Origin: Elusimicrobiota bacterium
GTDB lineage: Bacteria > Elusimicrobiota > Elusimicrobia > UBA1565 > UBA9628
Length of the DNA stretch: 64,000 bases
NCBI GenBank assembly: GCA_023213235.1
Contig: CP096137.1
Coordinates: forward strand, 2,350,723-2,414,722
Direction of reading: 5' to 3'
Part shown: one piece after another, positions 1,654 to 41,674 of the stretch
How the letters are laid out: every line of letters begins with the position of its first letter
Position numbering within the stretch: the first letter of the stretch is position 1
Program-made: the position numbers and the translations under genes
The notes under the pieces: model-generated
Database searches by the model: none
The model's input: the letters and a program-made list of their open reading frames with translations, nothing else
Told to the model about the DNA's origin: nothing

Positions 1654-2226
1654 TTAGACGTCCCGGACGTCCGAAAAGTGTCGCGCCGCTTCCAGCAGCT
1701 CGGCGCGGGCGCGCCTCAACCGCGCCTTGACCGAATCGAGCGAGCAGGACATCGCGTCGGCGATCTCCTCGTAGCTGAGCCCCTCGGTCTCGCGCAAGGT
1801 CAGCGCGAGGCGCTGCTCGGGGTTCAGGCGCGCGAGCAGGCGTTCGGCCGTGTCTCTCGCCTCGAGCGCCTTGGCGGGGGACTCCTCCGAGAGGGCGAGC
1901 CCGAGGGCCGCCCCGTCGGCCTCGAGCAGGGCGTCGAGCGACTCGGAGCGCCGGCGCGACGCCGCGCGAAGGACGTCGAGGCAGTGGTTGACGGCGATCC
2001 GGTGCAGCCAGGTGGCGAAGGCCGACCGGCCGTCGAAGCGCCCGAGGGACCGGTGGGCCTTCAGAAAGGTCTCCTGCGCCGCGTCGTCGGCCTCGGCGGG
2101 CCCGCCGAGCGTCGCCTCGCACAGCGCGCGCACGCGCGGCGCGTGCCGCCGCACGAGTTCGGCGAAGGCGGCGTCGTCGCCGCCCGCCGCGCGACGGGCG
2201 AGATCCTCGTCCCTCGGCTCGCCCAT
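1654..2226 (-). CDS. ECF RNA polymerase sigma-70 factor
   Basis: Region 2 ADDAAQETFLKA...FATWLHRIAVN; region 4 EGLSYEEIADAM...VKARLRRAR. Confidence 0.95.
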   Translation of the reverse strand: MGEPRDEDLARRAAGGDDAAFAELVRRHAPRVRALCEATLGGPAEADDAAQETFLKAHRSLGRFDGRSAFATWLHRIAVNHCLDVLRAASRRRSESLDALLEADGAALGLALSEESPAKALEARDTAERLLARLNPEQRLALTLRETEGLSYEEIADAMSCSLDSVKARLRRARAELLEAARHFSDVRDV

Positions 2227-2227
2227 C

Positions 2228-5200
2228 CTAGCGCGCGGCGGCCCCGAACTTCTCGTCCTTGAGCCGCTCGGCCTCGCGCACGGCGCGCATGACGGCGGCC
2301 GTCGTCTCGGTCGCCCGTCCGCTCTCGACGCGGACGAGCAGGCTGTAGGCGGCGGGCACGACGAACAAGGTCAGCAAGGTCGACACCGACACGCCGCCGA
2401 TCAGCGAGAGCGCCATCGGCACCGTCGTCTCCGAGCCGGCGCCGCGCGAGAGCGCGGTCGGGACCGCGGCCGCGATCGTCGCGACCGAGGTCATCAGGAT
2501 CGGCCGCAGGCGCACCGGGCAGGCGTCGAGCAGGGCCGCGCGGGGCTCGAGGCCCTCCTCGCGCCGCTGGTTCGTGAAGTCGACGAGCATGATCGAGTTC
2601 TTTTTGACAAGGCCCATGAGGAGCAGCAGGCCGATCATCGAATTGATGTTCAGGCTGCGGTCGAACGCGAGCAAGGTCAGGAACGCGCCCGACATGCTGA
2701 ACGGGAGGGCTAAGAGGACCGTGAACGGGTGCACGAAGCTGTTGAACTGCGAGCCGAGCACCATGTAGGCCACCAGGATTCCCAGGACCAGCGCGAACAG
2801 CAGGCTCTGGAACGACTCCTTGAACGTCTGCGAAGAGCCGGAGAGGACGACGTGGTAGCCGTCGGGCAGCGTCTCCTTGGCCAGCTTCTCGACGTCGGCG
2901 AGCACCTGCGCTTGGGATTTCCCGGGCGCCACGTTGGCGAACACGCCGATCGCGCGCTCCCGGTCCTTGCGCGTGATCGCGAGCAAGGTCGGCTCCTCGT
3001 CGATGTCCACGACGTCCGACATGCGGATCATCTCGCCCCGCTGGTTGCGCACGTAGAGGCGGCGGATCGCGTCGGCCGACAGGCGGTCGCCCGTCTCGGC
3101 GCGCACGCGCACGTCGTAGCGGCGGCCGTTGTCGGTGAAGAGGCCCGAGCGCACGCCGCCGATCATCGCGTTGATGGTCGTCCCGATCGACTGGATGCTG
3201 ACGCCGCGGGCGTACGCCTTCTGCCGGTTCGGGTGGACCCGGATCTCCGGGAGGCCGGTCTTGTAGTCGGTGTCGACGTCCACGACGGAACCGGACTTCT
3301 CCAATTTCTCCTTCAGCTCGACCGCGGACTTGGTGAGGATGTCCCAGTTGGGGCCGCGGACGGTGAATTCGATCGGGAAGCCGCGCGAGGACGAGAAGCC
3401 GCCCTGCGAGAGGTCCATGATGAACGCGCGCATCGACGGGATCGCGTTGAGGTCCTTGCGCGCGGCGGCCATCATCGTGCCCTGCGTGATCTTCTTGCCG
3501 TCGGGGCCGAGCGGGCGCTCGGAAATCGGCTTCATCGTCAGGAACATCATGCCCGCGTTGACCTCGCCGCCGCCGAAGCCTCCGACGGCCGCGTAATAGC
3601 GGTCGAGAGCCGGCTGCTTCAGCAGCCACGCCTCGACCTCCTTGAACTTGGCGTCGGTGAACTCCATCGAAGAGCCGACGGGGGTCTCGAGGCGCATCAT
3701 GAACATCGACTGGTCCTGCGCGGGGACGAACTCCTTGCGGATGTACTTCACCGAGATCATCGAGAGCGCGAAGAACAGCGCGGCGGCGCCGACCGTCTTC
3801 CAGCGGCGGTCGAGCGTCCAGGCGAGGCCCCGGCGATAGCGCTCGGTCAGCGAGGCGAACGTGCGGTCGACGGCCTGGATGATCCGGTTGCCGTGCGTCG
3901 CGGTCTCGAGGAACTGCGACGTGCGCATCGGAGCGAGCGTGAGCGCCTCGAGCAGCGAGAAGCTGACGGCCGCCGAGATCGTCACGCCGAACTGGAAGAA
4001 GAACTTGCCGATGATGCCCTTCATGAACACGACGGGCAGGAAGATCGCGAGGATGGCGAGCGTGGCCGCCAGCGCGGCGAACGCGATCTCGCGCGCCCCG
4101 AACACCGACGCGTCGAGGCGGTTCTTGCCGAGCTCGTGGTGCCGCACGATGTTCTCGAGCACCATGATCGCGTCGTCGACGACGATGCCGATGGACAAGG
4201 TGAGGCCGAGCAGGGTGAACGAGTTCAGCGTGAAGCCGAGGAAGTAGGTCACGATGAACGTCCCGAGAACCGACGTCGGGATCGCGAGCAGCACGTTCAG
4301 GGTGGAGGACCACGAGCCCAGGAACAGCCAGCACACGAGCGACGTCAGCACGGCCGCGAGAATCAGATGGTGCGTCAACTCGGCGACGGACTGCTTGATG
4401 AACTGCGTGGAGTCGAAGTTGACGCCGAGCTTCATGCCCTTGGGCAGGCCGGGCTTGATCTCCTCCATGCGCTTCTTGACGCGGTCGGCGATCTCGACGG
4501 CGTTGGCGCCGCGCTGCTTGCGGATGCCGATGCCGACGGCACGTGATCCGTTTACTCGAGAAATGCGGCGCTGATCGGCGAGGCCGTCCTCGATGCGCGC
4601 GACGCGCTTGAGCGGGATCGGCACGTGGATCGCCTGGCCGCCGCGCTGGGTGATCAGCAGCTCGCCGAACTTCGCGGGATCGGAGAACTCGCCGAGCGTG
4701 CGGACGTTGAACTCTTTGGTCGGCGTCTCGATCTGGCCGGCCGGGACCTCGGCGTGCTCGCGGCGGATGGCGGCGAGGACGTCCTCGACCGTGATCTGCT
4801 CGGCCGCCATCTTCTCGGCGTCGAGCCAGACGCGCAGGTTGCGGTTGATCAGCCCGCCGAGGAAGATGTCGCCGACGCCGGGAACGGTCTGGAACTTGTT
4901 CTTGAGCACGTCCTGCGTGTACACCATCAGGTCTTTGACGGGGACGTCGTCGCCGGAAACCGCGAGCCACATGATCGGCTGGTCCTCGGGGTTGACCTTC
5001 ATGACGATGGGGGGATCGATGTCGCGCGGCAGGCGCTGCTGGGCCTGCGCGATCTTCGTCTGGATCTCCTGCAGCGCGAAGTCGACGGGCCGGTCGAGCT
5101 CGAGCTCGACGGTGATCGCGGCCTGGCCGAGCTTGGAGGAGGAGCTGATCTGCTTGACGCCTTGGACGGAGGTCACCGCGTCCTCGATGACGTCGACGAC

Positions 5201-5386
5201 CTCGGCCTCCATGATCTCCGGCGCGGCGCCGTCCCAGGTCACGGTGATGTTGACGACGGGGAAGTCGACGTCCGGCATCTGCGAAACGCCCATGCGGCTG
5301 TAGCCGACCCAGCCGAAGAGCATCAGCCCGAACATGAGCATCCAGGCGAAGACGGGGTTCTTGATGGAAAGGTCGGAAATCGTCAC
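2228..5386 (-). CDS. RND efflux permease, AcrB/AcrD/AcrF family
   Basis: GTG 5386 overlaps the TolC stop (GTGA); SIKNPVFA, GIVVDDAIMVLENI and RLRPILMTS motifs. Confidence 0.95.
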   Translation of the reverse strand: MTISDLSIKNPVFAWMLMFGLMLFGWVGYSRMGVSQMPDVDFPVVNITVTWDGAAPEIMEAEVVDVIEDAVTSVQGVKQISSSSKLGQAAITVELELDRPVDFALQEIQTKIAQAQQRLPRDIDPPIVMKVNPEDQPIMWLAVSGDDVPVKDLMVYTQDVLKNKFQTVPGVGDIFLGGLINRNLRVWLDAEKMAAEQITVEDVLAAIRREHAEVPAGQIETPTKEFNVRTLGEFSDPAKFGELLITQRGGQAIHVPIPLKRVARIEDGLADQRRISRVNGSRAVGIGIRKQRGANAVEIADRVKKRMEEIKPGLPKGMKLGVNFDSTQFIKQSVAELTHHLILAAVLTSLVCWLFLGSWSSTLNVLLAIPTSVLGTFIVTYFLGFTLNSFTLLGLTLSIGIVVDDAIMVLENIVRHHELGKNRLDASVFGAREIAFAALAATLAILAIFLPVVFMKGIIGKFFFQFGVTISAAVSFSLLEALTLAPMRTSQFLETATHGNRIIQAVDRTFASLTERYRRGLAWTLDRRWKTVGAAALFFALSMISVKYIRKEFVPAQDQSMFMMRLETPVGSSMEFTDAKFKEVEAWLLKQPALDRYYAAVGGFGGGEVNAGMMFLTMKPISERPLGPDGKKITQGTMMAAARKDLNAIPSMRAFIMDLSQGGFSSSRGFPIEFTVRGPNWDILTKSAVELKEKLEKSGSVVDVDTDYKTGLPEIRVHPNRQKAYARGVSIQSIGTTINAMIGGVRSGLFTDNGRRYDVRVRAETGDRLSADAIRRLYVRNQRGEMIRMSDVVDIDEEPTLLAITRKDRERAIGVFANVAPGKSQAQVLADVEKLAKETLPDGYHVVLSGSSQTFKESFQSLLFALVLGILVAYMVLGSQFNSFVHPFTVLLALPFSMSGAFLTLLAFDRSLNINSMIGLLLLMGLVKKNSIMLVDFTNQRREEGLEPRAALLDACPVRLRPILMTSVATIAAAVPTALSRGAGSETTVPMALSLIGGVSVSTLLTLFVVPAAYSLLVRVESGRATETTAAVMRAVREAERLKDEKFGAAAR

Positions 5387-6659
5387 AGGGAGCCTCCGGG
5401 AACGCCCGCCGCGACCTCGAGCCGCACGCGGGACCAGTACGAGTCGACGCGCGCGGCGTTGAGCGCGAGGCGCGTCTGCTGCAGGACGTTGAGGCCGCCG
5501 AGCACGTCGAGGTTCGTGACCTGCCCGAGCCGGTAGTCGTCGCTCTGGGCCTTCGCGTTCTGCTCGGCCAGCTTCTCCGCCGCGTCGAGCGCCGCGACGA
5601 CCGAGTACGAGGCCGTCAGGTCCTGGTACGCCGAGCGCGTCTCGAGCTCCGCCGTGCGCACGGCCTGCGACAGCGCGGCGTCCTGGGCCTTCGCGCGCGC
5701 CTTCGCCTGCCGCGACTGCGCGCTGATCTCGCCGCCCGCCCACAGCGGGAGGGAGCCGGTGATCGTCGCGTCCCACTTCACGTCCTGCGTGAAGGACGGC
5801 GGGCGCTTCAGGTAATAGTTCGCGTCGGCCGAGATGGAGGGCCAGCGCCGACGCGTGACGACCTTGATCGAGTCCTCGGCGGCGTTCTTCTCGGCGCGGG
5901 CCGACTCGACGTCGGCGCGGCCGCGCGCGCGCGACAGCGCCGCGTCGAGCGCGGGGGAGCCGCCGGCACGGGAACGGGGGCGGGCGCCAGGCGCTCGTCG
6001 AGGCCGGTCAGGAAGCCGAGGCGGAATTGCGCGACCTGCTCGGCCGCCCGCGCGCTCTCGAGTTGGGCGACGAGCTGGGCGGCCTGCGACTCGGCGGCGA
6101 GGTGCTCGCTCGGGCGGGCGCGTCCGAGGCGGCGGAACTCCTTGAGGTCCTTCACGCGGTCGCGGGTGATGTCGAGCAGGGCCGACCGGATGCGGATGTC
6201 CTCCTGGGCGGCCGACAGGTCCAGATAGGACCGCGCGACGTCCCTGTAGAGGAGGTGCTTGGCGCGGGCCAGGCGCAGCTCGGCGGCGCGTCCCTGGTCC
6301 TTGGACGCGCGGTAGGCGAGGAACTCGCGGAAGCCCGAGAACAGGGGCTGCTGCAGGTTCACCCAGGCCTGCTCGCGCTGGCGCTGAAGGAAGAGGCCGC
6401 TCTGGCCGCGCGGCACGTCCTGGAACGTCTCGGTGCCGAACACGGTCAGCCGCGGCATCACGCGCGAGAAGATCTCCTCGGCGCGGGCCACGGTCTCCTC
6501 GTACGTCGCGCCGGAGATCGCGATCTCCTCGCTGCGCGCCAGCGCGAGCTCGTAGGCCTCGGGCAGGGCGATCGGGCGGCCGGAGACGGGGGCCGTCGAC
6601 GCGGCCTGGGCCGCGGCGAGGGAGGGCAGCAGCAGGAGCGCGGCGAGGAACGCCCTCAC
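5383..6659 (-). CDS. TolC-family outer membrane efflux protein (frameshift ~5950-5985, likely sequencing error)
   Basis: Signal peptide and OEP repeats split across track ORFs 5808..6767 and 5383..5781; GTGA overlaps at both ends. Confidence 0.85.
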
Positions 6660-9053: not shown

Positions 9054-10103
9054 CTAGGCCGGCGTCTTGAGCCGCGCGACTTCGGCCTCGAGCTCGCGGA
9101 ACTTCACGAGGAGCTCGGGCAGCTTCGCGAGCGAGGCGTTCATCTTGTGCATCTCGCGCGCGGGACGAGCCGGGGAGCCGAAGTAGGCCGTCTTGGCCTC
9201 GGTGTCCTGCGCGATCGCCGAGAAGCCCATGACGACGGTGCCCGCCTTGAGCAAAGTCTGCGGCTTGATGATGCACATGCCGGAGATCATGACCCCGTCC
9301 TCGGCCGTGACCGAACCGCCGAGCGCGGAGTTGCCCACGATGTAGATGTAGCGGCCGATGCGGCAGTTGTGGCCGACGTGCACCTGGTCGTCGAACTTCG
9401 TGTGGTCGCCGATCGTCGTGCTCTCGATCGTCGCGCGGTCGACCGTGCAGGAGGCGCCGATCTCGACGTGGTCGCCGATCACGACGTTGCCGATCTGCGG
9501 GACCTTGTGGCGGCCCGTCGGGCCGTCGTAAAAGCCGAAGCCGTCGGCGCCGATAACGGTGCAGCCGTGGATCACGCACTCCCGGCCGATCACGCAGCGA
9601 TGGCCGAGGACCGAGTTCGGGCCGAGGGCGCTGCCCTCGCCGAGGACCGCGAACTGCTCGACGACCGCGCCCGCGTGCACGACGGCGCGCTCGCCGATCA
9701 CGGCGCCTTCGAGGATCACGGCGCCCGGCAGGATCGAGGCGGAGGCCGCGACCTTGGCCGTCGGATGAACGAACGCCGCCGGCGAGACGCCGGGGGCGGG
9801 GCGCGGCGCCGTGTCGAAGCGCTTGAGGAGCGCGATGAGCGCCGGGCGCGCGGCCGCGTCGGGGGCGACGATCGCGTTGGCGAACTTCGGCGCCAACGAG
9901 GCGATCGTCAGCACGGGCGCGCCCTCGACGAGGCGGGGGCGGCGCTTCAGGAAGGCGGGGGTCTCGACGAAGTAGATCCGGCCCTTGTCGGGCGCGTCGC
10001 CCTCTGCGAGAGCCTCGGCGTCCGCCGGCCCGGAGATCGGCAGGGCGGGGTCGCCGGTGAAGGGCAGGCCGAGCGTCGCGGCGAGGTCTTTGAGGGTGAT
10101 CAT
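9054..10103 (-). CDS. lpxD: UDP-3-O-(3-hydroxyacyl)glucosamine N-acyltransferase
   Basis: Hexapeptide repeats, IGADGFGF, KVPQIGNVVIGDHVEIGA, TKFDDQVHVGHN; ATG at 10103. Confidence 0.95.
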   Translation of the reverse strand: MITLKDLAATLGLPFTGDPALPISGPADAEALAEGDAPDKGRIYFVETPAFLKRRPRLVEGAPVLTIASLAPKFANAIVAPDAAARPALIALLKRFDTAPRPAPGVSPAAFVHPTAKVAASASILPGAVILEGAVIGERAVVHAGAVVEQFAVLGEGSALGPNSVLGHRCVIGRECVIHGCTVIGADGFGFYDGPTGRHKVPQIGNVVIGDHVEIGASCTVDRATIESTTIGDHTKFDDQVHVGHNCRIGRYIYIVGNSALGGSVTAEDGVMISGMCIIKPQTLLKAGTVVMGFSAIAQDTEAKTAYFGSPARPAREMHKMNASLAKLPELLVKFRELEAEVARLKTPA

Positions 10104-10243
10104 GCCTTTCGCCTCTCTTCCATGCTCTTGTGGTGGGCGCACAGCCGGCGCTTGCCGGATTTCTTCAGGCCGCTCTTCTTCAGGCATCGGTGAGCCTCGG
10201 TGTACGTCGAGGCGGGGGTGACGGCGTCGCACTGCTTCTTCAA
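10100..10243 (-). CDS. 47-aa basic Cys/His protein (putative CCCH zinc finger) coupled to lpxD
   Basis: TGcTATCCT-6 nt-TTG start; MKKQCDA...HRCLKK...RRLCAHHK; stop overlaps lpxD start (ATGA). Confidence 0.6.
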   Translation of the reverse strand: MKKQCDAVTPASTYTEAHRCLKKSGLKKSGKRRLCAHHKSMEERRKA

Positions 10244-18429: not shown

Positions 18430-18533
18430 CTCCCCGGCGCGTCCGGGCACCGCGCCGATATAGGCCCTTGGGCCTAGGCCCTGCCGGGCCCCCGCCCCAT
18501 GTAGGGGTATCCCGGCGCCGATATACTGAAGTC

Positions 18534-19771
18534 ATGAAGGGAAACAACTCGACGAAGACGACCGCCAGCGTCCTCATCCTCGCCATGGCCGCCCTTCTGT
18601 GCACCCCTCCGGCCGAGGCGAAGACCAAGAAGAAGGCGCCGAAGATGAACCAGGAGGCCCAGGCCCTGATGTCGGCCGGCCTCGCCAACCTCGAGAACGG
18701 GGAAACCTCGGCCGCCGTCTCCAACTTCAACAAGGCCGTGCGCAAGGAAGGGTCGGTTTCCAGCTACTTCCTGCTCGGCTGGGCCCACTACCAGCGCGGC
18801 TTCAAGCTCGGCTCGACCGAGGCCGCCGACCGCGACGACGCCCAGTCCGCGATCGACGCGTACGCGATGGCCCTCGGACTCGACCCCAGCTCAAGGCTCT
18901 GCCGGACGCCTCCCGCCTGTATTTCTCGATGGCGCTGTGCTACGAGGCCGTGAACTCCTACGACCGGGCGCTGGACGCTTATAAGATGGCTTTCCGGGCC
19001 GCCCCCGACAAGCCCCTGATTCCGATGAACGCGGCCCGCCTGCGCCTGAAGATGGGCGACGCGGCCAAGGCCGTCTCCAACATCGATCTCGCGATGGAAA
19101 AGGCCATGAAGAACGGCCAGGGCGAGGAAGTGCGCAAGGCCGTGCGCCGCGACCCGGCGTTCGCCCCGCTCATCGCCGACAACAACACCCGCAAGGCCCT
19201 CGGCATCGGCTCGGCCGAGGACGGGGAGATGGTCGCCGACCTCGGCGCCCGCGGCGAGGAGCTGCGCGACGCGGTCCGCGACACGGCCCCCAAGCCCGTC
19301 GCCCCGGCCCAGGATCCCGCGGTCCTCGAGAAGATCGCGCAGGGCAACGTCGAGTTCAAGTTCCGCCGCTACCTGTCCGCGGTGCAGGCCTACAACGAGG
19401 CCCTCGCCATCGACCAGGAGCGCATGACGCTCGGCGCGCCGCAGACCTCTCAGGTCTATGAGAAGATCGGCATGGCCTACAACAAGCTCGGGTCCTCCGA
19501 CGTGGCCATCCGCTCCCTGCAGAAGTCCCTGCAGCAGAACCCGATGAACCCGTCGGCGCACTACCAGATCGCGATCGCCTACGCGATGTCCGGCAAGACC
19601 GCGGTGGCGCTCAACGCCCTCGGCGAGGCCTTCAAGTCCTGCGCCGGGCCCAACGACATCCGCCGCTTCGTGATGCAGGCGAAGACGGACGTCGAGTTCG
19701 AGGCGGTCCGCGACCTCCCGGGCTTCCGCTCGACGATCGCCCAGTACTCCGATCGCGTCGCCCTGAAGTAG
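18534..19771 (+). CDS. Exported tetratricopeptide repeat protein (frameshift ~18885-18890)
   Basis: TATACT-6 nt-ATG; signal peptide; multiple TPR helices across track ORFs 18468 and 18599. Confidence 0.85.
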
Positions 19772-19800: not shown

Positions 19801-20693
19801 ATGCTCCCGACCTTGCTTCTCCTGCCGGTCCTCGCCGTCTCCGCCGGAGAGTTCGAGGACGCCGCGGCCAAGCTGCGCGCCCTCGTCGAATCCGCCAGGC
19901 CCCGATACGTCATCGACCCCGCGCGCGGCGCGTGGTACCGCAAGGTGACCGGCGCGAAGGGCTACGTCGGGCTCGAGGCCTGGGGCGTCCTGCCCCGTCC
20001 GAGCTTCGACCCGGCGCGCGCGAAGCACGTGCCCGTCGCCGGCGAGCCGGCTCACGCCGCGGGCCCGCTCGACCGCCCCGACGTCTACCTCGGCCTTCAC
20101 GCCGAAAGCGCCGAGGTCGACTGCGGGCTGATCTGGGACCAGGTCCACGACGCCGCCGGCCGCGGCACCGGCCGCTATGCGTACCGCGTCTACTGGAGGA
20201 CGAGCAAGGGAGGATGGGGAAATCCCGCGCCCGGCGCAGCCGACGACCTGTACCTGGAGCCGGGCGAGCGCTTCGCCCTGACCCTGACCGCCGAGCCGGC
20301 GGGCCGCGCGCGCCTGGCGGTGCGCCGGGCCGGGCGCCGCGCGGCCGCCGCCTACGTGTTCGACGTCCCCGGCCTGCTCGCCTCGGACGGGACGCTCAAG
20401 CCTCTTTCCTTTAAGAGGGTCCATTCCATCGACCAGTTCCGCCTGGACGCCCGCGGCGCCCGCCGCGGCAACGAGGGCCGCCCGGCCCTGCCCACCCGCA
20501 CGCGCCTCGAGGGCGGGCGCTGGGAGGGGCGCACCTGCTCGCGGCCGACGGCTCGCGCCGGGCGCTGGCCGGCGGCCTCGCGACGGTCGCGAGAGGGGCC
20601 GACGCGGCCGGGCGCTACGACGCGGTCTTCCCGGAGGCCGGCGTCGGGGCCGGCGGCGCCGAGGAGATGGTGGTTCTGCCTCCTCGATCCTAA
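19801..20693 (+). CDS. Exported hypothetical protein (frameshift ~20525)
   Basis: GGAGG RBS; signal peptide; DRPDVYLG...EVDCGLIW...YRVYWR; the corrected frame ends at TAA 20693. Confidence 0.65.
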
Positions 20694-20709
20694 ATTGCTA
20701 TAGTTAGGC

Positions 20710-21417
20710 GTGCCTTATTCGAAACGTGACGCGCCGAACTGCGACTGGTGCCCGTTTAAGAAGAACTGCTTCTACGAGCTGCTCGGCACCAAAGAGTCCA
20801 AGCGCGCCTGGCGCGACATCCGGCTGGCCAACCCTTTCAAGCGCGGCGAGGTCGTCTTCCACGAGGGCGCGATGCCCCACGGCCTCTACGTCGTCTGCAC
20901 GGGAAAGGTGAAGGTCTACAAGTCGAGCCGCACCGGCCAGCAGCTGACGACGCGCGTCGAGAGCCCCGGCGACCTGCTCGGCCACGTCACCTTGCTCGCC
21001 GACGAGGGTCCTTATACCGGCACCGGCGAGGCCCTCGAGCCCAGCGTCGTCTCGATGATCGACAAGCCGACGTTCCAGAGCTTCCTCGCGAAGTATCCGC
21101 ACGCCTCCGCCGCGCTGCTGCGCGAACTGGCGCGCGACGTGCGCCGCGGCGAGAACAAGGCGCGCGACATCGCCTTCAAGCCCGCGCGCGGACGCCTGGC
21201 CGACACGTTGATCCGCATGATGCAGCCGAAGAAGCCGTACGCGATCGTCGCCGGCATCAAGCGCCGCGACTTGGCCGAGATGGCGGGCCTCACGATCGAG
21301 ACGACCGTGCGCCTCCTGAAGGACTTCGAGGAGCGCGACGTCCTGCGCAAGAAGGACAAGGATCTCCTGATCCTCAGCGAAGAGCGCCTGCGCGCCCTCG
21401 CCGGCTCCGCGTCCTAA
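20710..21417 (+). CDS. Crp/Fnr family regulator with N-terminal Cys cluster
   Basis: CDWCPFKKNC, cNMP-type FKRGEVVFHEG, HTH RRDLAEMAGLTIETTVR. Confidence 0.92.
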   Translation: MPYSKRDAPNCDWCPFKKNCFYELLGTKESKRAWRDIRLANPFKRGEVVFHEGAMPHGLYVVCTGKVKVYKSSRTGQQLTTRVESPGDLLGHVTLLADEGPYTGTGEALEPSVVSMIDKPTFQSFLAKYPHASAALLRELARDVRRGENKARDIAFKPARGRLADTLIRMMQPKKPYAIVAGIKRRDLAEMAGLTIETTVRLLKDFEERDVLRKKDKDLLILSEERLRALAGSAS

Positions 21418-21550
21418 GAAGCCGCAAAACCCTCGCCGTGTGACATCGCCCCGTCCTTGCGCGCGCCCTCTCGCGCGAGCCCGTCGACGGAGGACCCAGC
21501 CTCGAGGACCCGCCCGTTCATAGGTCCACAGCGCCATGGTCATAGGCCCT

Positions 21551-21600
21551 TTGACCCAGATCAATGAGAGGCATCAAGGGGGTCGGTTGACCGTTCTCAT
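21551..21600. promoter_or_regulatory. Cluster of FNR/Crp-like boxes
   Basis: TTGAC-ccag-ATCAA (21551-64), ATGAG-aggc-ATCAA (21564-77), TTGAC-cgtt-CTCAT (21587-600); compare FNR consensus TTGAT-N4-ATCAA. Confidence 0.55.
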
Positions 21601-21633
21601 CGGAGATTTTTCGAAGAGGTCTATACTGTCTTC

Positions 21634-21888
21634 ATGATCAACCTGATTCTGATGTCCCTGTCGCTCGCGAACCCCCAGCCCATCCAGACGGCCCAGTTCA
21701 AGCCCTGCGTGTGGCCCAACGTCTGCAACGAAGTCTCGGCGCCCGCCGCCGCCCCGGCCGAGGTCGCCCAGTTCAAGCCCTGCGTGTGGCCCAACGTCTG
21801 CAAGAACGAGACGCCCGCCCCGGTCATCGAGGTCGCGCAGTTCACGACCTGCCAGTGGCCGAACAAGTGCGGCAAGAAGGCCGCCTAA
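21634..21888 (+). CDS. 84-aa secreted peptide with three AQFxxCxWPNxC repeats
   Basis: TATACT-6 nt-ATG; short hydrophobic N-terminus; three cores; own terminator. Confidence 0.85.
   Translation: MINLILMSLSLANPQPIQTAQFKPCVWPNVCNEVSAPAAAPAEVAQFKPCVWPNVCKNETPAPVIEVAQFTTCQWPNKCGKKAA
21691..21870 (+). repeat. Intragenic direct repeats encoding CxWPNxC cores
   Basis: Identical 38-bp copies at 21691-21728 and 21766-21803; diverged copy at 21835-21870. Confidence 0.95.
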
Positions 21889-21919
21889 GACTTAACAGCC
21901 GACTCGAACCGGCGCCGTG

Positions 21920-21950
21920 AGAAGACCCCGACCCCTCGGGGTCTTCTTTT
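21920..21950 (+). terminator. Rho-independent terminator
   Basis: AGAAGACCCCGA-cccc-TCGGGGTCTTCT followed by a T-run. Confidence 0.85.
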
Positions 21951-21964
21951 GTATCTTGGCGCCG

Positions 21965-22804
21965 ATGAAGCCTCGCCGCCCGCTGTCGATCGCCTTGCTC
22001 ACCGTTTGCTGGGCGGGGCTTTTCTGGGGATTCTATCTCGAGCCGCGGCGCGAGCCGGTCGAGACGCGCGCGGAGATCGTCCTTTCAGGCTGGCCGCGGG
22101 AGCTCGAGGGCGTCCGCATCGCGGCGATCTCCGACATCCACGCGGGAGCCCCTTATGTCGGAGCGGACAAGCTCCGCGGGCTGGTGCGGCGCGTCAACGC
22201 GGCGGAGGCCGACGCGATCGTCCTGCTCGGGGACTACGTGATCGACAGCGTCGTGGGGGGAACGTTCATGACCCCGGAGGACCTCGCGGAGATTCTCGCG
22301 GACCTCAAGGCGCCGCTCGGCGTCTACGCGGTGCTCGGCAACCACGACTGGTGGCTCGACGGGCCGCGCGTGCGCACGGCGCTCGAGGCGCGCGGCATCA
22401 AAGTGCTCGAGAACGAGGGCGTCTCGCTCAAGACCAACGGCCGCGCCTTCCGGCTCGCGGGCCTGGCCGACCACCTCGAGCGCAGCCCGAACCCCGAGGC
22501 CGCGCTCCAGGGAGCGGCCAGGGAAGAGCCCGCGATCGCCCTGATCCACGAGCCGGATTATTTCCCGGAGATCCCGGAGCGCATCGCGCTGACCTTGGCC
22601 GGGCACACGCACGGCGGCCAGGTGCGTCTGCCGTGGATCGGCGCGCCCGTCGTGCCGTCGGCGTACGGCCAGCGCTACGCGCGCGGGCTCGTGAAAGAGG
22701 GGACCAGGCAGCTGTTCGTCACGAGCGGGGTCGGAACGAGCATCATCCCCGTGCGCTTCGGCGTCCCGCCGGAGTACGCCGTCCTGACCCTTCGGGCGCT
22801 CTAA
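21965..22804 (+). CDS. Metallophosphoesterase (YkuE/YaeI-like)
   Basis: SDIH, LGDY, LGNHD, LIHEPD, GHTHGGQ motifs. Confidence 0.92.
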   Translation: MKPRRPLSIALLTVCWAGLFWGFYLEPRREPVETRAEIVLSGWPRELEGVRIAAISDIHAGAPYVGADKLRGLVRRVNAAEADAIVLLGDYVIDSVVGGTFMTPEDLAEILADLKAPLGVYAVLGNHDWWLDGPRVRTALEARGIKVLENEGVSLKTNGRAFRLAGLADHLERSPNPEAALQGAAREEPAIALIHEPDYFPEIPERIALTLAGHTHGGQVRLPWIGAPVVPSAYGQRYARGLVKEGTRQLFVTSGVGTSIIPVRFGVPPEYAVLTLRAL

Positions 22805-41097: not shown

Positions 41098-41185
41098 ACG
41101 TTGACGGGGCTCGTTGATCATGGTCAAGCCGGGGTCTTGACCGGTGTCCTCGGACCGGGCCTGCCCGTCGCGATATCATGTGGGC

Positions 41186-41674
41186 ATGAAGAAATTCGCT
41201 CCCCTTTTCCTCGCCCTCGCCACTTCCGCCGCCGCGCAGCAGGTCACCCGCGTGCCGATGGTCCTGCCCTCCGTCAACGCGTACGCCGTGTACTTCCCGG
41301 CCCCGTCGCCCGCGCTCATCCCGATGAGCATGCCCGGCTCGGTGTCCGTCGAGATCGCCGTTCCGCTCTCGCTCCCGGCGCCGCGCCCGGTCCCGAACGC
41401 GATCACGCCCCTTTCGTTTCCGGGCGCGAAGAACCCTTTCCCTCTGCCGACGCCGCTGATCGTGGCGCAGGCCGAGGTCGTCCCGGCCCTGCCCGTCGTC
41501 GACGCGGTCCAGGCCGTGGTCCCCGCCCGCCCCGCGCTCAACGAGCTGCGCGACACCGTCATCGGCCGGGAGCCGATCCGGGTCCAGGCGAACAAGGCCT
41601 TCGACGGCCGCCGCGAGACGGTTCGCGAGGCCGCGCTGCCCTCCGGCCGGATTTTTAAGTCCGCCCGCCGGTAA
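41186..41674 (+). CDS. Exported Pro-rich hypothetical protein
   Basis: TATCAT-6 nt-ATG; signal peptide MKKFAPLFLALATSAAA; ends KAFDG. Confidence 0.7.
   Translation: MKKFAPLFLALATSAAAQQVTRVPMVLPSVNAYAVYFPAPSPALIPMSMPGSVSVEIAVPLSLPAPRPVPNAITPLSFPGAKNPFPLPTPLIVAQAEVVPALPVVDAVQAVVPARPALNELRDTVIGREPIRVQANKAFDGRRETVREAALPSGRIFKSARR

Follow-up and report, generated by a model that had tools for sequence, protein, structure and literature searches.

The window analysed here is a stretch of 64,000 nucleotides (nt) from an Elusimicrobiota bacterium (contig CP096137.1), and the subject of this account is a small gene within it whose 84-residue product carries a short cysteine-containing cassette three times. 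The open reading frame (ORF) translates as MINLILMSLSLANPQPIQT-AQFKPCVWPNVC-NEVSAPAAAPAEV-AQFKPCVWPNVC-KNETPAPVIEV-AQFTTCQWPNKC-GKKAA, the two spacers between the cassettes, NEVSAPAAAPAEV and KNETPAPVIEV, being rich in Ala, Pro, Glu and Val. The first two cassettes fall within a direct repeat of 38 nt with 100% identity (21691-21728 versus 21766-21803), and a third copy at 21835-21872 shows 71% identity. Tandem Repeats Finder made no report for the gene, its copies being too few and too widely spaced. A perfect 12-nt inverted repeat (21920-21931 and 21936-21947) lies in the terminator that follows the gene which, judged by this layout, is monocistronic and intrinsically terminated. There is one copy in the genome, and a gene for a regulator of the CRP/FNR family precedes it (Table 1). 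An earlier, sequence-only reading of this DNA had described the three cassettes, the identity of two of them over 38 nt and the terminator; the ORF list, a repeat search and terminator scoring (a 13-pair hairpin, then a T-rich tail) recovered all of them. It had also recognised no named family for the product, in agreement with searches of Pfam (E<=1) and NCBIfam (E<=10), neither of which returned a match.

Table 1. Features of the peptide locus and of one distant cluster; positions refer to the window unless another locus is named.
Feature	Position	Strand	Basis
Regulator gene, CRP/FNR family, FNR type	20710-21417	+	Pfam cNMP_binding and HTH_Crp_2
Box 1, TTGACCCAGATCAA, FNR-type palindrome TTGAY-N4-RTCAA	21551-21564	.	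Window sequence; conserved upstream in related loci
Box 1b, ATGAGAGGCATCAA, imperfect, abutting box 1	21564-21577	.	Comparison of upstream regions
Box 2, TTGACCGTTCTCAT, promoter-proximal, centre 41-42 nt before predicted +1	21587-21600	.	Comparison of upstream regions
-10-like hexamer TATACT, 6 nt before ATG, no Shine-Dalgarno sequence	21622-21627	+	Window sequence; upstream-region comparison
Peptide gene, 84 residues plus stop	21634-21888	+	ORF list, homologues, substitution pattern
Predicted signal peptide MINLILMSLSLANPQPIQTA, predicted cut A20/Q21	21634-21693	+	Inferred from members with canonical Sec signals ending A|Q
Cassette 1, AQFKPCVWPNVC, residues 20-31	21691-21726	+	ORF translation, repeat search, logo
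Cassette 2, AQFKPCVWPNVC, residues 45-56, DNA identical to cassette 1	21766-21801	+	Repeat search
Cassette 3, subtype-B form AQFTTCQWPNKC, residues 68-79	21835-21870	+	Repeat search, subtype comparison
Intrinsic terminator, GC-rich hairpin of 13 base pairs (scored span 21919-21948) plus T-run	21919-21953	+	Inverted-repeat search, terminator scoring
Bufferin-like cluster outside the window	L039 (G000:C1:3381000-3391000), about 3400-6050		MNIO gene and neighbours

The peptide belongs to an undescribed family of stand-alone small proteins lying outside Pfam and NCBIfam. A word-indexed search recovered 41 relatives, the few named ones being 'hypothetical protein' entries from Elusimicrobia metagenome-assembled genomes (MAGs), and a scan of one genome per species gave 37 loci, whose titles name Elusimicrobia or Elusimicrobiota in 35 cases, Ca. 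Endomicrobium in one and only 'bacterium' in one. An exhaustive profile search of 1.84 billion representatives extended the family to 232 clusters (50% identity) at E<=1e-3 and 137 at E<=1e-10, across which the CxWPNxC-type core singled out by the sequence-only reading is kept while its copy number varies. Family statistics were drawn from 187 of the profile matches. Three long matches (P0129, P0186 and P0182) were rejected as unrelated repeat proteins and removed before all counts; the genuine members are 50-155 residues long and none is fused to another domain. Sampling of 401 Elusimicrobiota genomes detected the peptide in 42, nearly all of one order (30 of 47 genomes in family f1, 9 of 10 in f2, 1 of 2 in f3 and the single genome of f11). 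The three largest other families, with 118, 47 and 89 genomes sampled, gave no match. Literature searches by the CVWPN motif and by themes of Elusimicrobia peptides or peptides ribosomally synthesised and modified post-translationally (RiPPs) found no work on the family.

Variation also extends to the number of genes. In same-genus genomes the gene is present as three paralogues in tandem, all with a promoter of their own (L040 2244-3304; L041 minus strand 2163-3352; L042), two of them leaderless and one with a Shine-Dalgarno (SD) leader; the window genome retains only the first of the three. A sister-family genome has two tandem peptide genes of five loops each. In L035 (10037-10294) the peptide frame is lost past the first cassette, through a frameshift or an assembly error in the repeat, and in L032 a masked run of N lies within the gene (about 10060-10160). 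These two cases suggest that the repeats are hard to assemble, so that copy numbers taken from MAGs may be underestimates.

Compared over 183 first and 319 later cassettes, the unit reads (V/T)-A-Q-(F/V/I)-x-(P/T)-C-V-W-P-N-x-C, spans 12-13 residues and shows no conservation past its second Cys. Members hold one to six copies. The Cys are paired as C-x5-C, or as C-x4-C in a few members, and among 183 members one C-x5-C loop is present in 6, two in 62, three in 89, four in 23 and five in 3. The Cys count differs from twice the loop count in 18 of the 183, most of which contain a C-x-W-P-K-C variant shorter by one residue. The A-Q pair is conserved at 75%/73% before the first cassette and at 79%/74% before later ones. 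Linkers range from 0 to 33 residues (median 8), are rich in Ala, Val, Pro and Glu and are not conserved. Two cassette subtypes can be distinguished: units with Pro before the first Cys have W and N/H in the loop, and those with Thr or Ile at this position include most of the Y, Q and R/K variants; the sequences are related, and the subtype counts are hence descriptive only.

The pattern of substitution indicates that the peptide ORF is a real, translated gene and that its cassette is under strong purifying selection at the peptide level. Between the first two cassettes, many genes show differences of 3-6 nt and no amino acid change (5 nt in L002, 5 in L011, 6 in L012 and 4 in L009). Third codon positions are the most variable in the family comparison, replacements of the conservative K/R and W/Y/F kinds occur, and the GC content at third codon positions of the peptide frame is 0.98. 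L032 and L035 were left out of the cassette comparisons; the comparison of codon positions also omitted L030 and L037, both truncated at contig ends. In other genes, that of the window included, cassette copies are identical at the DNA level, which suggests that gene conversion or recent duplication is also at work. Since the cassette is kept in 232 protein clusters and within-gene differences are synonymous only, the pattern is, on this comparative evidence, far beyond chance. One might instead suppose that the ORF arose by chance in high-GC DNA, or that the repeated motif belongs to a non-coding RNA, on the grounds that the minus strand has a mirror ORF of 84 residues and that an Rfam scan of 21300-22100 gave sub-threshold noise only. 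This notion is refuted by the substitution pattern, the frame moreover being preserved throughout the 232 clusters, and it retains virtually no credence. At the RNA level a weak hint comes from a soil metatranscriptome (X20), in which two contigs of ~100 nt match the cassettes of a relative; two further RNA runs (X16 and X17) were without matches, and X15 is probably DNA.

A comparison of loci indicates that the conserved partner of the peptide gene is an FNR-type regulator, which, like the binding-site-like boxes in the promoter, was absent from the account given by the sequence-only reading. The window regulator has an N-terminal C11-x2-C14-x5-C20 arrangement plus C63, and a helix-turn-helix (HTH) motif TIETTVRLL; the four Cys and the HTH (ETTVR) are invariant in all 25 sequences compared (the window and 24 loci). 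Its best full-length match is NCBIfam Fnr NF008365 (63.7 bits, cut-off 228), and PDB 5cvr, a solved FNR, is also among the best full-length matches. In 25 of the 37 loci the gene directly upstream, on the same strand, is that of the regulator, with 59-95% identity to the window gene, and in one further locus the contig is cut at its position. In the sample of 401 genomes an ortholog (E<=1e-50) is present in 63, including all 42 that bear the peptide, and no regulator-negative genome (338 in all) has the peptide; the genomes, being related, are not independent, and the figures are descriptive. The two genes lie <=1.5 kb apart in 32 of the 42 genomes, 1.6-2.8 kb apart in 4 and on different contigs in 6. 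Recognition helices of the form E--(S/V)R go with TTGA boxes. The only other CRP-family protein of the genome has the helix T-R-E-P-L-T-R, of RE..R form, which we take to be CRP-like.

Upstream of the peptide gene stand three TTGA-type boxes, of which the imperfect box 1b has a perfect counterpart, TTGATAAACATCAA, in relatives such as L004. Among 37 upstream regions (the window and 36 loci), TTGA-N6-TCA sites occur at least once in 37, at least twice in 35 and at least three times in 18, and they are present also in the 11 loci without an adjacent regulator. The centre of the proximal box lies 41-43 nt before the position 7 nt past the -10 in all 17 regions that contain both strict patterns, including the window. 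In 20 of the 37 regions, again including the window, TAnAnT stands 5-7 nt ahead of the ATG and an SD is lacking; the remaining 17 have the same boxes and -10 together with a 35-45-nt leader containing an SD, and none of the 37 has neither. A class-II-like activated promoter is predicted from this spacing and, because TAnAnT stands close to an ATG that has no SD, a leaderless mRNA is predicted in the window's clade. The -10 box reported by the sequence-only reading is present as TATACT; a generic sigma-70 scan found no -35/-10 pair, a result that fits an activator-dependent promoter. Genome-wide, 15 perfect TTGAY-N4-RTCAA sites are found in 3.8 Mb against ~1.7 expected, box 1 being one of them; of the 406 loose sites in the genome, three fall within 50 nt of one another at the peptide promoter and nowhere else. 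Other perfect boxes adjoin genes for PEPCK, an Sdh/Frd cytochrome b subunit, a 2-oxoacid:ferredoxin oxidoreductase, an SBP_bac_5 protein, a nucleotide cyclase and several family-less exported proteins, and the genes beside these boxes display an FNR-like metabolic theme.

A second perfect FNR-type box in the window, TTGATCATGGTCAA at 41114-41127, is followed by a TTGAC half-site and, downstream, by an ORF (41186-41674, plus strand) for an exported protein of 162 residues with no Pfam family; this ORF likely belongs to the same regulon as the peptide gene. The combination of TAnAnT 5-7 nt before an ATG with no SD recurs at many genes of this genome and its relatives (window 18520-18536, 21952-21967 and 41114-41190; G000 343912, 2858664 and 2860629). 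The examples include the gene for a TPR protein upstream of the regulator, several box-linked genes and possibly a metallophosphoesterase gene, whose likely start is the ATG at 21965. Leaderless mRNAs may, on this pattern, be common in the clade.

The N-terminus of the window peptide consists of a hydrophobic core, INLILMSLSL, and a helix-breaking NPQP, with A at -1, Q at -3 and no K/R. In A1 there is no variation at M1 and L4, and conservation at I5, L6 and L9 is >=90%. Some 13-15 of the 183 members have a classical K/R-rich Sec signal peptide in place of this N-terminus and keep the cassettes; in P0109 (...APASA|QFQTC) and P0120 (...PSFA|QIKPC), the latter from an Elusimicrobia MAG, an A-x-A site directly abuts the first cassette. 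Because some relatives carry canonical signal peptides ending A|Q, we infer Sec export and cleavage at A20|Q21 for the window peptide, and cassettes that operate outside the cytoplasm. The signal-like N-terminus proposed earlier thus gains support from the textbook signals that relatives have at the same place, whereas the window copy itself departs from them in its lack of K/R and its Q at -3. The genome has one DsbB match, flanked by DsbA-like Thioredoxin_4 genes, and exported Cys pairs should therefore form disulfides. No glutaminyl cyclase (PF05096) or VKOR (PF07884) was detected in this genome, the completeness of which is estimated at 83.6%. AlphaFold2, run with a 30-row alignment, gave no confident fold (predicted local distance difference test 55.4, predicted template-modelling score 0.15), and this low-confidence model fits small loops on flexible linkers. 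The ESM Atlas contains neither a usable match for the peptide nor a model of it.

The gene probably encodes an FNR-type-gated, Sec-exported chain of disulfide-closed Trp-Pro-Asn loops in which the cassette is the working unit. The neighbouring regulator would activate a class-II-like promoter through the proximal box, centred ~41.5 nt upstream, and so place the peptide gene under low-oxygen or redox control, and transcription would begin at or beside the A of the ATG to give a leaderless mRNA. The N-terminal 20 residues would serve as a Sec signal peptide cut at A20|Q21, leaving a mature chain of ~64 residues in the periplasm or outside the cell, where DsbA/DsbB would close each C-x5-C pair into a seven-residue disulfide loop. 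The unit at work would be the cassette and not the whole chain, which would present several copies of a small, rigid Trp-Pro-Asn loop. These loops might work in linked form, providing a polyvalent ligand, inhibitor or binder, or they might be cut apart at internal A|Q sites. No dedicated modifying enzyme would be required. Release of single loops is conceivable within this scheme because A-Q is conserved before internal cassettes and the linkers are dispensable, and a metal or redox role is conceivable because the Cys are paired and Trp is present.

A number of observations weigh against this interpretation. The window N-terminus has no positive n-region and only ~10 hydrophobic residues, which is atypical for Sec; it is more conserved than is usual for signal peptides, residues 2-4 include D or E in 58 of the 183 members, and Q occupies position -3 of the predicted cleavage site. 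The regulator scores under the curated cut-off of the Fnr family, and C63 is not at what we take to be the position of the fourth ligand in E. coli FNR. Start site, regulator binding and oxygen response are read from sequence patterns, and the generic promoter scan was empty. Oxidation of the Cys pairs is a prediction. Expression rests on the two ~100-nt contigs of a relative from one soil RNA library, which could be DNA carry-over. Finally, a simple arrangement of 'loops on a string' leaves the conserved A-Q before internal cassettes (74-79%) unexplained.

The sequence-only reading had likened the product to a multi-core RiPP precursor. In a true precursor of this type a distant enzyme, radical-SAM or MNIO, would modify the cassettes in the cytoplasm, for instance by cross-linking Cys to Asn or to Trp, or by forming a heterocycle from Cys, ahead of export and cleavage. 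Repeated hyper-conserved cores, variable copy number and a highly conserved leader-like N-terminus would suit such a scheme, the genome does have one MNIO gene, and two reports describe RiPP precursors with Sec signals, the bufferins and oxazolins (PMC11626156, PMC12452194); sizeable proportions of bufferin precursors are, according to the second report, genetically unlinked to an MNIO gene (PMC12452194). The genomic surroundings argue otherwise. Pfam searches of the window genes between 9 and 32.6 kb (19 proteins and 4 neighbours) identified RND efflux, amidase, TPR, regulator, metallophosphoesterase, nucleoside salvage and transketolase genes, interspersed with family-less ORFs. No radical-SAM, YcaO, lanthipeptide, RiPP ATP-grasp or MNIO protein was detected with Pfam among the window genes tested within ~12 kb or among 48 flanking proteins from 11 non-syntenic loci, the only ATP-grasp match in these scans being a D-Ala-D-Ala ligase; the earlier remark that no modifying enzyme is adjacent therefore holds. 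Neighbours in these non-syntenic loci include NUDIX proteins (L020 and L033), cytochrome c/FixO (L021) and GGDEF and VTT proteins (L029 and L037), and no RiPP maturase is linked to the peptide gene in the window or in any of the 37 loci. A SPASM search of the genome returned a single match, under the cut-off. The one MNIO gene (PF05114, E 4e-98) lies ~1 Mb from the peptide gene with a precursor candidate of its own, in a cluster comprising, in order, a small Cys-rich ORF (...ECWGVNACKGQGACGG...), MNIO, DUF2063-position ORFs, ECF sigma and an anti-sigma-like gene. MNIO is present in 29 of the 401 genomes; 14 of these are among the 42 with the peptide, which leaves 28 peptide genomes in which it was not found, and the other 15 are peptide-free. 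Because no enzyme travels with the peptide gene, RiPP status, as suggested from the cassette layout, has become less likely, and we now regard it as unlikely.

The chain might alternatively be a pro-hormone-like precursor, cut at every A|Q with the linkers trimmed away, whose ~11-residue loops would be a low-oxygen-gated signal between cells and may be re-imported by an OPT-type transporter. The conservation of A-Q before both first and later cassettes at the levels given above, the lack of any beyond the second Cys, linkers that can shrink to 0 residues and are hence dispensable, and the tandem arrays of three paralogues with a promoter each in same-genus genomes are all points in its favour. 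Furthermore, in 3 of the 11 non-syntenic loci (L022 7654-9516, L027 7101-8966 and L036 3769-5670), which have no adjacent regulator and differ in their other neighbours, the gene just upstream of that for the peptide encodes an OPT-family oligopeptide transporter. These three loci may, however, share one ancestral arrangement; the OPT gene of the window genome is ~54 kb from the peptide gene, and no FNR-type boxes occur upstream of the OPT genes in this genome, L022, L027 or L036. No processing protease is linked, the -3 residues of the internal sites are variable and no receptor was identified, and the pro-hormone scheme is accordingly rated a little-favoured option. The same low rating applies to its most elaborate form, in which an FNR-type-gated leaderless gene, with no enzyme to modify its product, would give an exported chain cut at every A|Q into disulfide-cyclised undecapeptides, pGlu-F-x-P-C-V-W-P-N-x-C (pGlu, pyroglutamate), that would act as a diffusible signal of low oxygen or inhibit an enzyme of a neighbour, maybe with re-import by OPT. 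A periplasmic thiol or metal buffer would put the Cys pairs to another use: reduced in anoxia, they would together with Trp bind a soft metal, for instance Cu(I), or trap reactive species. The strict pairing of Cys beside an invariant Trp and the FNR-type control are compatible with this role, for which one report offers a precedent in exported Cys-based copper-binding peptides, the bufferins (PMC11626156). Yet no metal-resistance or metal-sensing genes are linked, and with DsbA/DsbB present the exported Cys pairs should be oxidised. The peptide also has no His/Met, unlike typical periplasmic copper sites, and a buffer is in our view distinctly improbable. Enterococcal sex pheromones are a precedent for hydrophobic pheromones derived from signal peptides, and the N-terminus (M-I-N/E-L-I-L-x-L-S-L) might itself be a product, freed as a pheromone-like peptide by an intramembrane protease after the signal-peptidase cut. 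Its unusual conservation could be cited here, as could the M50B-like peptidase genes which, along with EamA, flank the peptide gene in L026 and L034 and a Peptidase_M50 gene that follows a perfect box in the window genome. Against this, the members that swap the N-terminus for an ordinary signal peptide keep their cassettes, and conservation of the cassettes equals or exceeds that of the N-terminus; this idea carries very little weight.

Exported disulfide-closed loops, the reading preferred here, have partial parallels in a number of known systems. Multi-core RiPP precursors such as cyanobactin PatE and those of the microviridins/graspetides likewise have one small gene with several short cores in varying number. 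They are defined, however, by co-encoded maturases and recognition sequences, none of which is linked to the peptide gene, and the leader of the window family is predicted to be an export signal. Cyanobactins moreover conserve the flanks and vary the cores, whereas here the cores are conserved and the linkers vary. Bufferins and oxazolins are reported to be small exported Cys peptides with an N-terminal signal, some of them with repeated short Cys motifs (PMC11626156, PMC12452194). The window peptide differs in having no DUF2282 or other Pfam match, in libraries that lack the Buf_6/12Cys, EGKCG and CxxxxC profiles, and in that no MNIO or DUF2063 gene adjoins the peptide gene, MNIO being not found in those 28 of the 42 peptide genomes. 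The yeast alpha-factor precursor and the plant multi-domain proteinase-inhibitor precursors share with the window family a signal peptide, tandem conserved units and unconserved spacers. In eukaryotic multi-copy pro-peptides, though, the spacers contain dibasic or other defined processing sites and the enzymes are known, while the window family conserves only the A-Q in front of each unit and has no known protease. Contryphans and the frog 'Rana box' have a seven-residue disulfide ring with Pro, and contryphans with Trp too, but these are animal peptides with a single loop and unrelated precursors, and the likeness would be structural only. The promoter resembles the class II promoters of the E. 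coli FNR regulon in its TTGA-N6-TCAA boxes, a proximal box ~41.5 nt upstream of the predicted start and the lack of a -35 hexamer, and differs in its three boxes and predicted leaderless transcript. The window regulator shares the N-terminal C-x2-C-x5-C with E. coli FNR, from which its score under the family cut-off and its fourth Cys at 63 set it apart.

Elusimicrobiota are almost entirely uncultured and, to our knowledge, nothing is known of their secreted peptides. The family reported here is large (232 clusters at 50% identity), sharply conserved and missing from Pfam and NCBIfam, and our searches found no literature on it. It also offers a regulatory handle, in that an FNR-type regulator is always co-present and usually adjacent and the peptide promoter is the most box-rich of the genome. 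If the loops are released, the gene would represent a rare bacterial tandem-copy pro-peptide without a dedicated maturase; if they stay joined, it would represent a new kind of minimal disulfide-loop repeat. Were the undecapeptides indeed a signal, the system would represent the counterpart, in a diderm bacterium, of the yeast alpha-factor precursor, coupled to an oxygen sensor. The 12-residue cassette is small enough for direct synthesis and assay, and the promoter set provides a clean comparative case in which the same activator sites would drive leaderless and leadered versions of one gene.

Two more ORFs lie upstream of the regulator on the same strand. The gene for an exported TPR protein (18534-19771, plus strand; signal peptide MKGNNSTK...PPAEA) is conserved at this position. 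It starts at 18534 in one frame and its conserved continuation, from ~18890, is in another, with a frameshift near 18885-18890; orthologues such as L001:2898-4136 are intact, and the window copy is either a pseudogene or the product of an assembly indel. A complex prediction for the TPR ortholog (L001, residues 30-413) with a mature peptide (P0003, residues 20-80) scored 0.00 and is no argument either way about binding. Between the TPR gene and the regulator, an ORF of 300 residues (19801-20703, plus strand) has a signal-like N-terminus and no Pfam or NCBIfam match, and tblastn places it at the corresponding position in only some of the related loci, namely L004, L005, L006, L008, L009, L017, L019 and L035.

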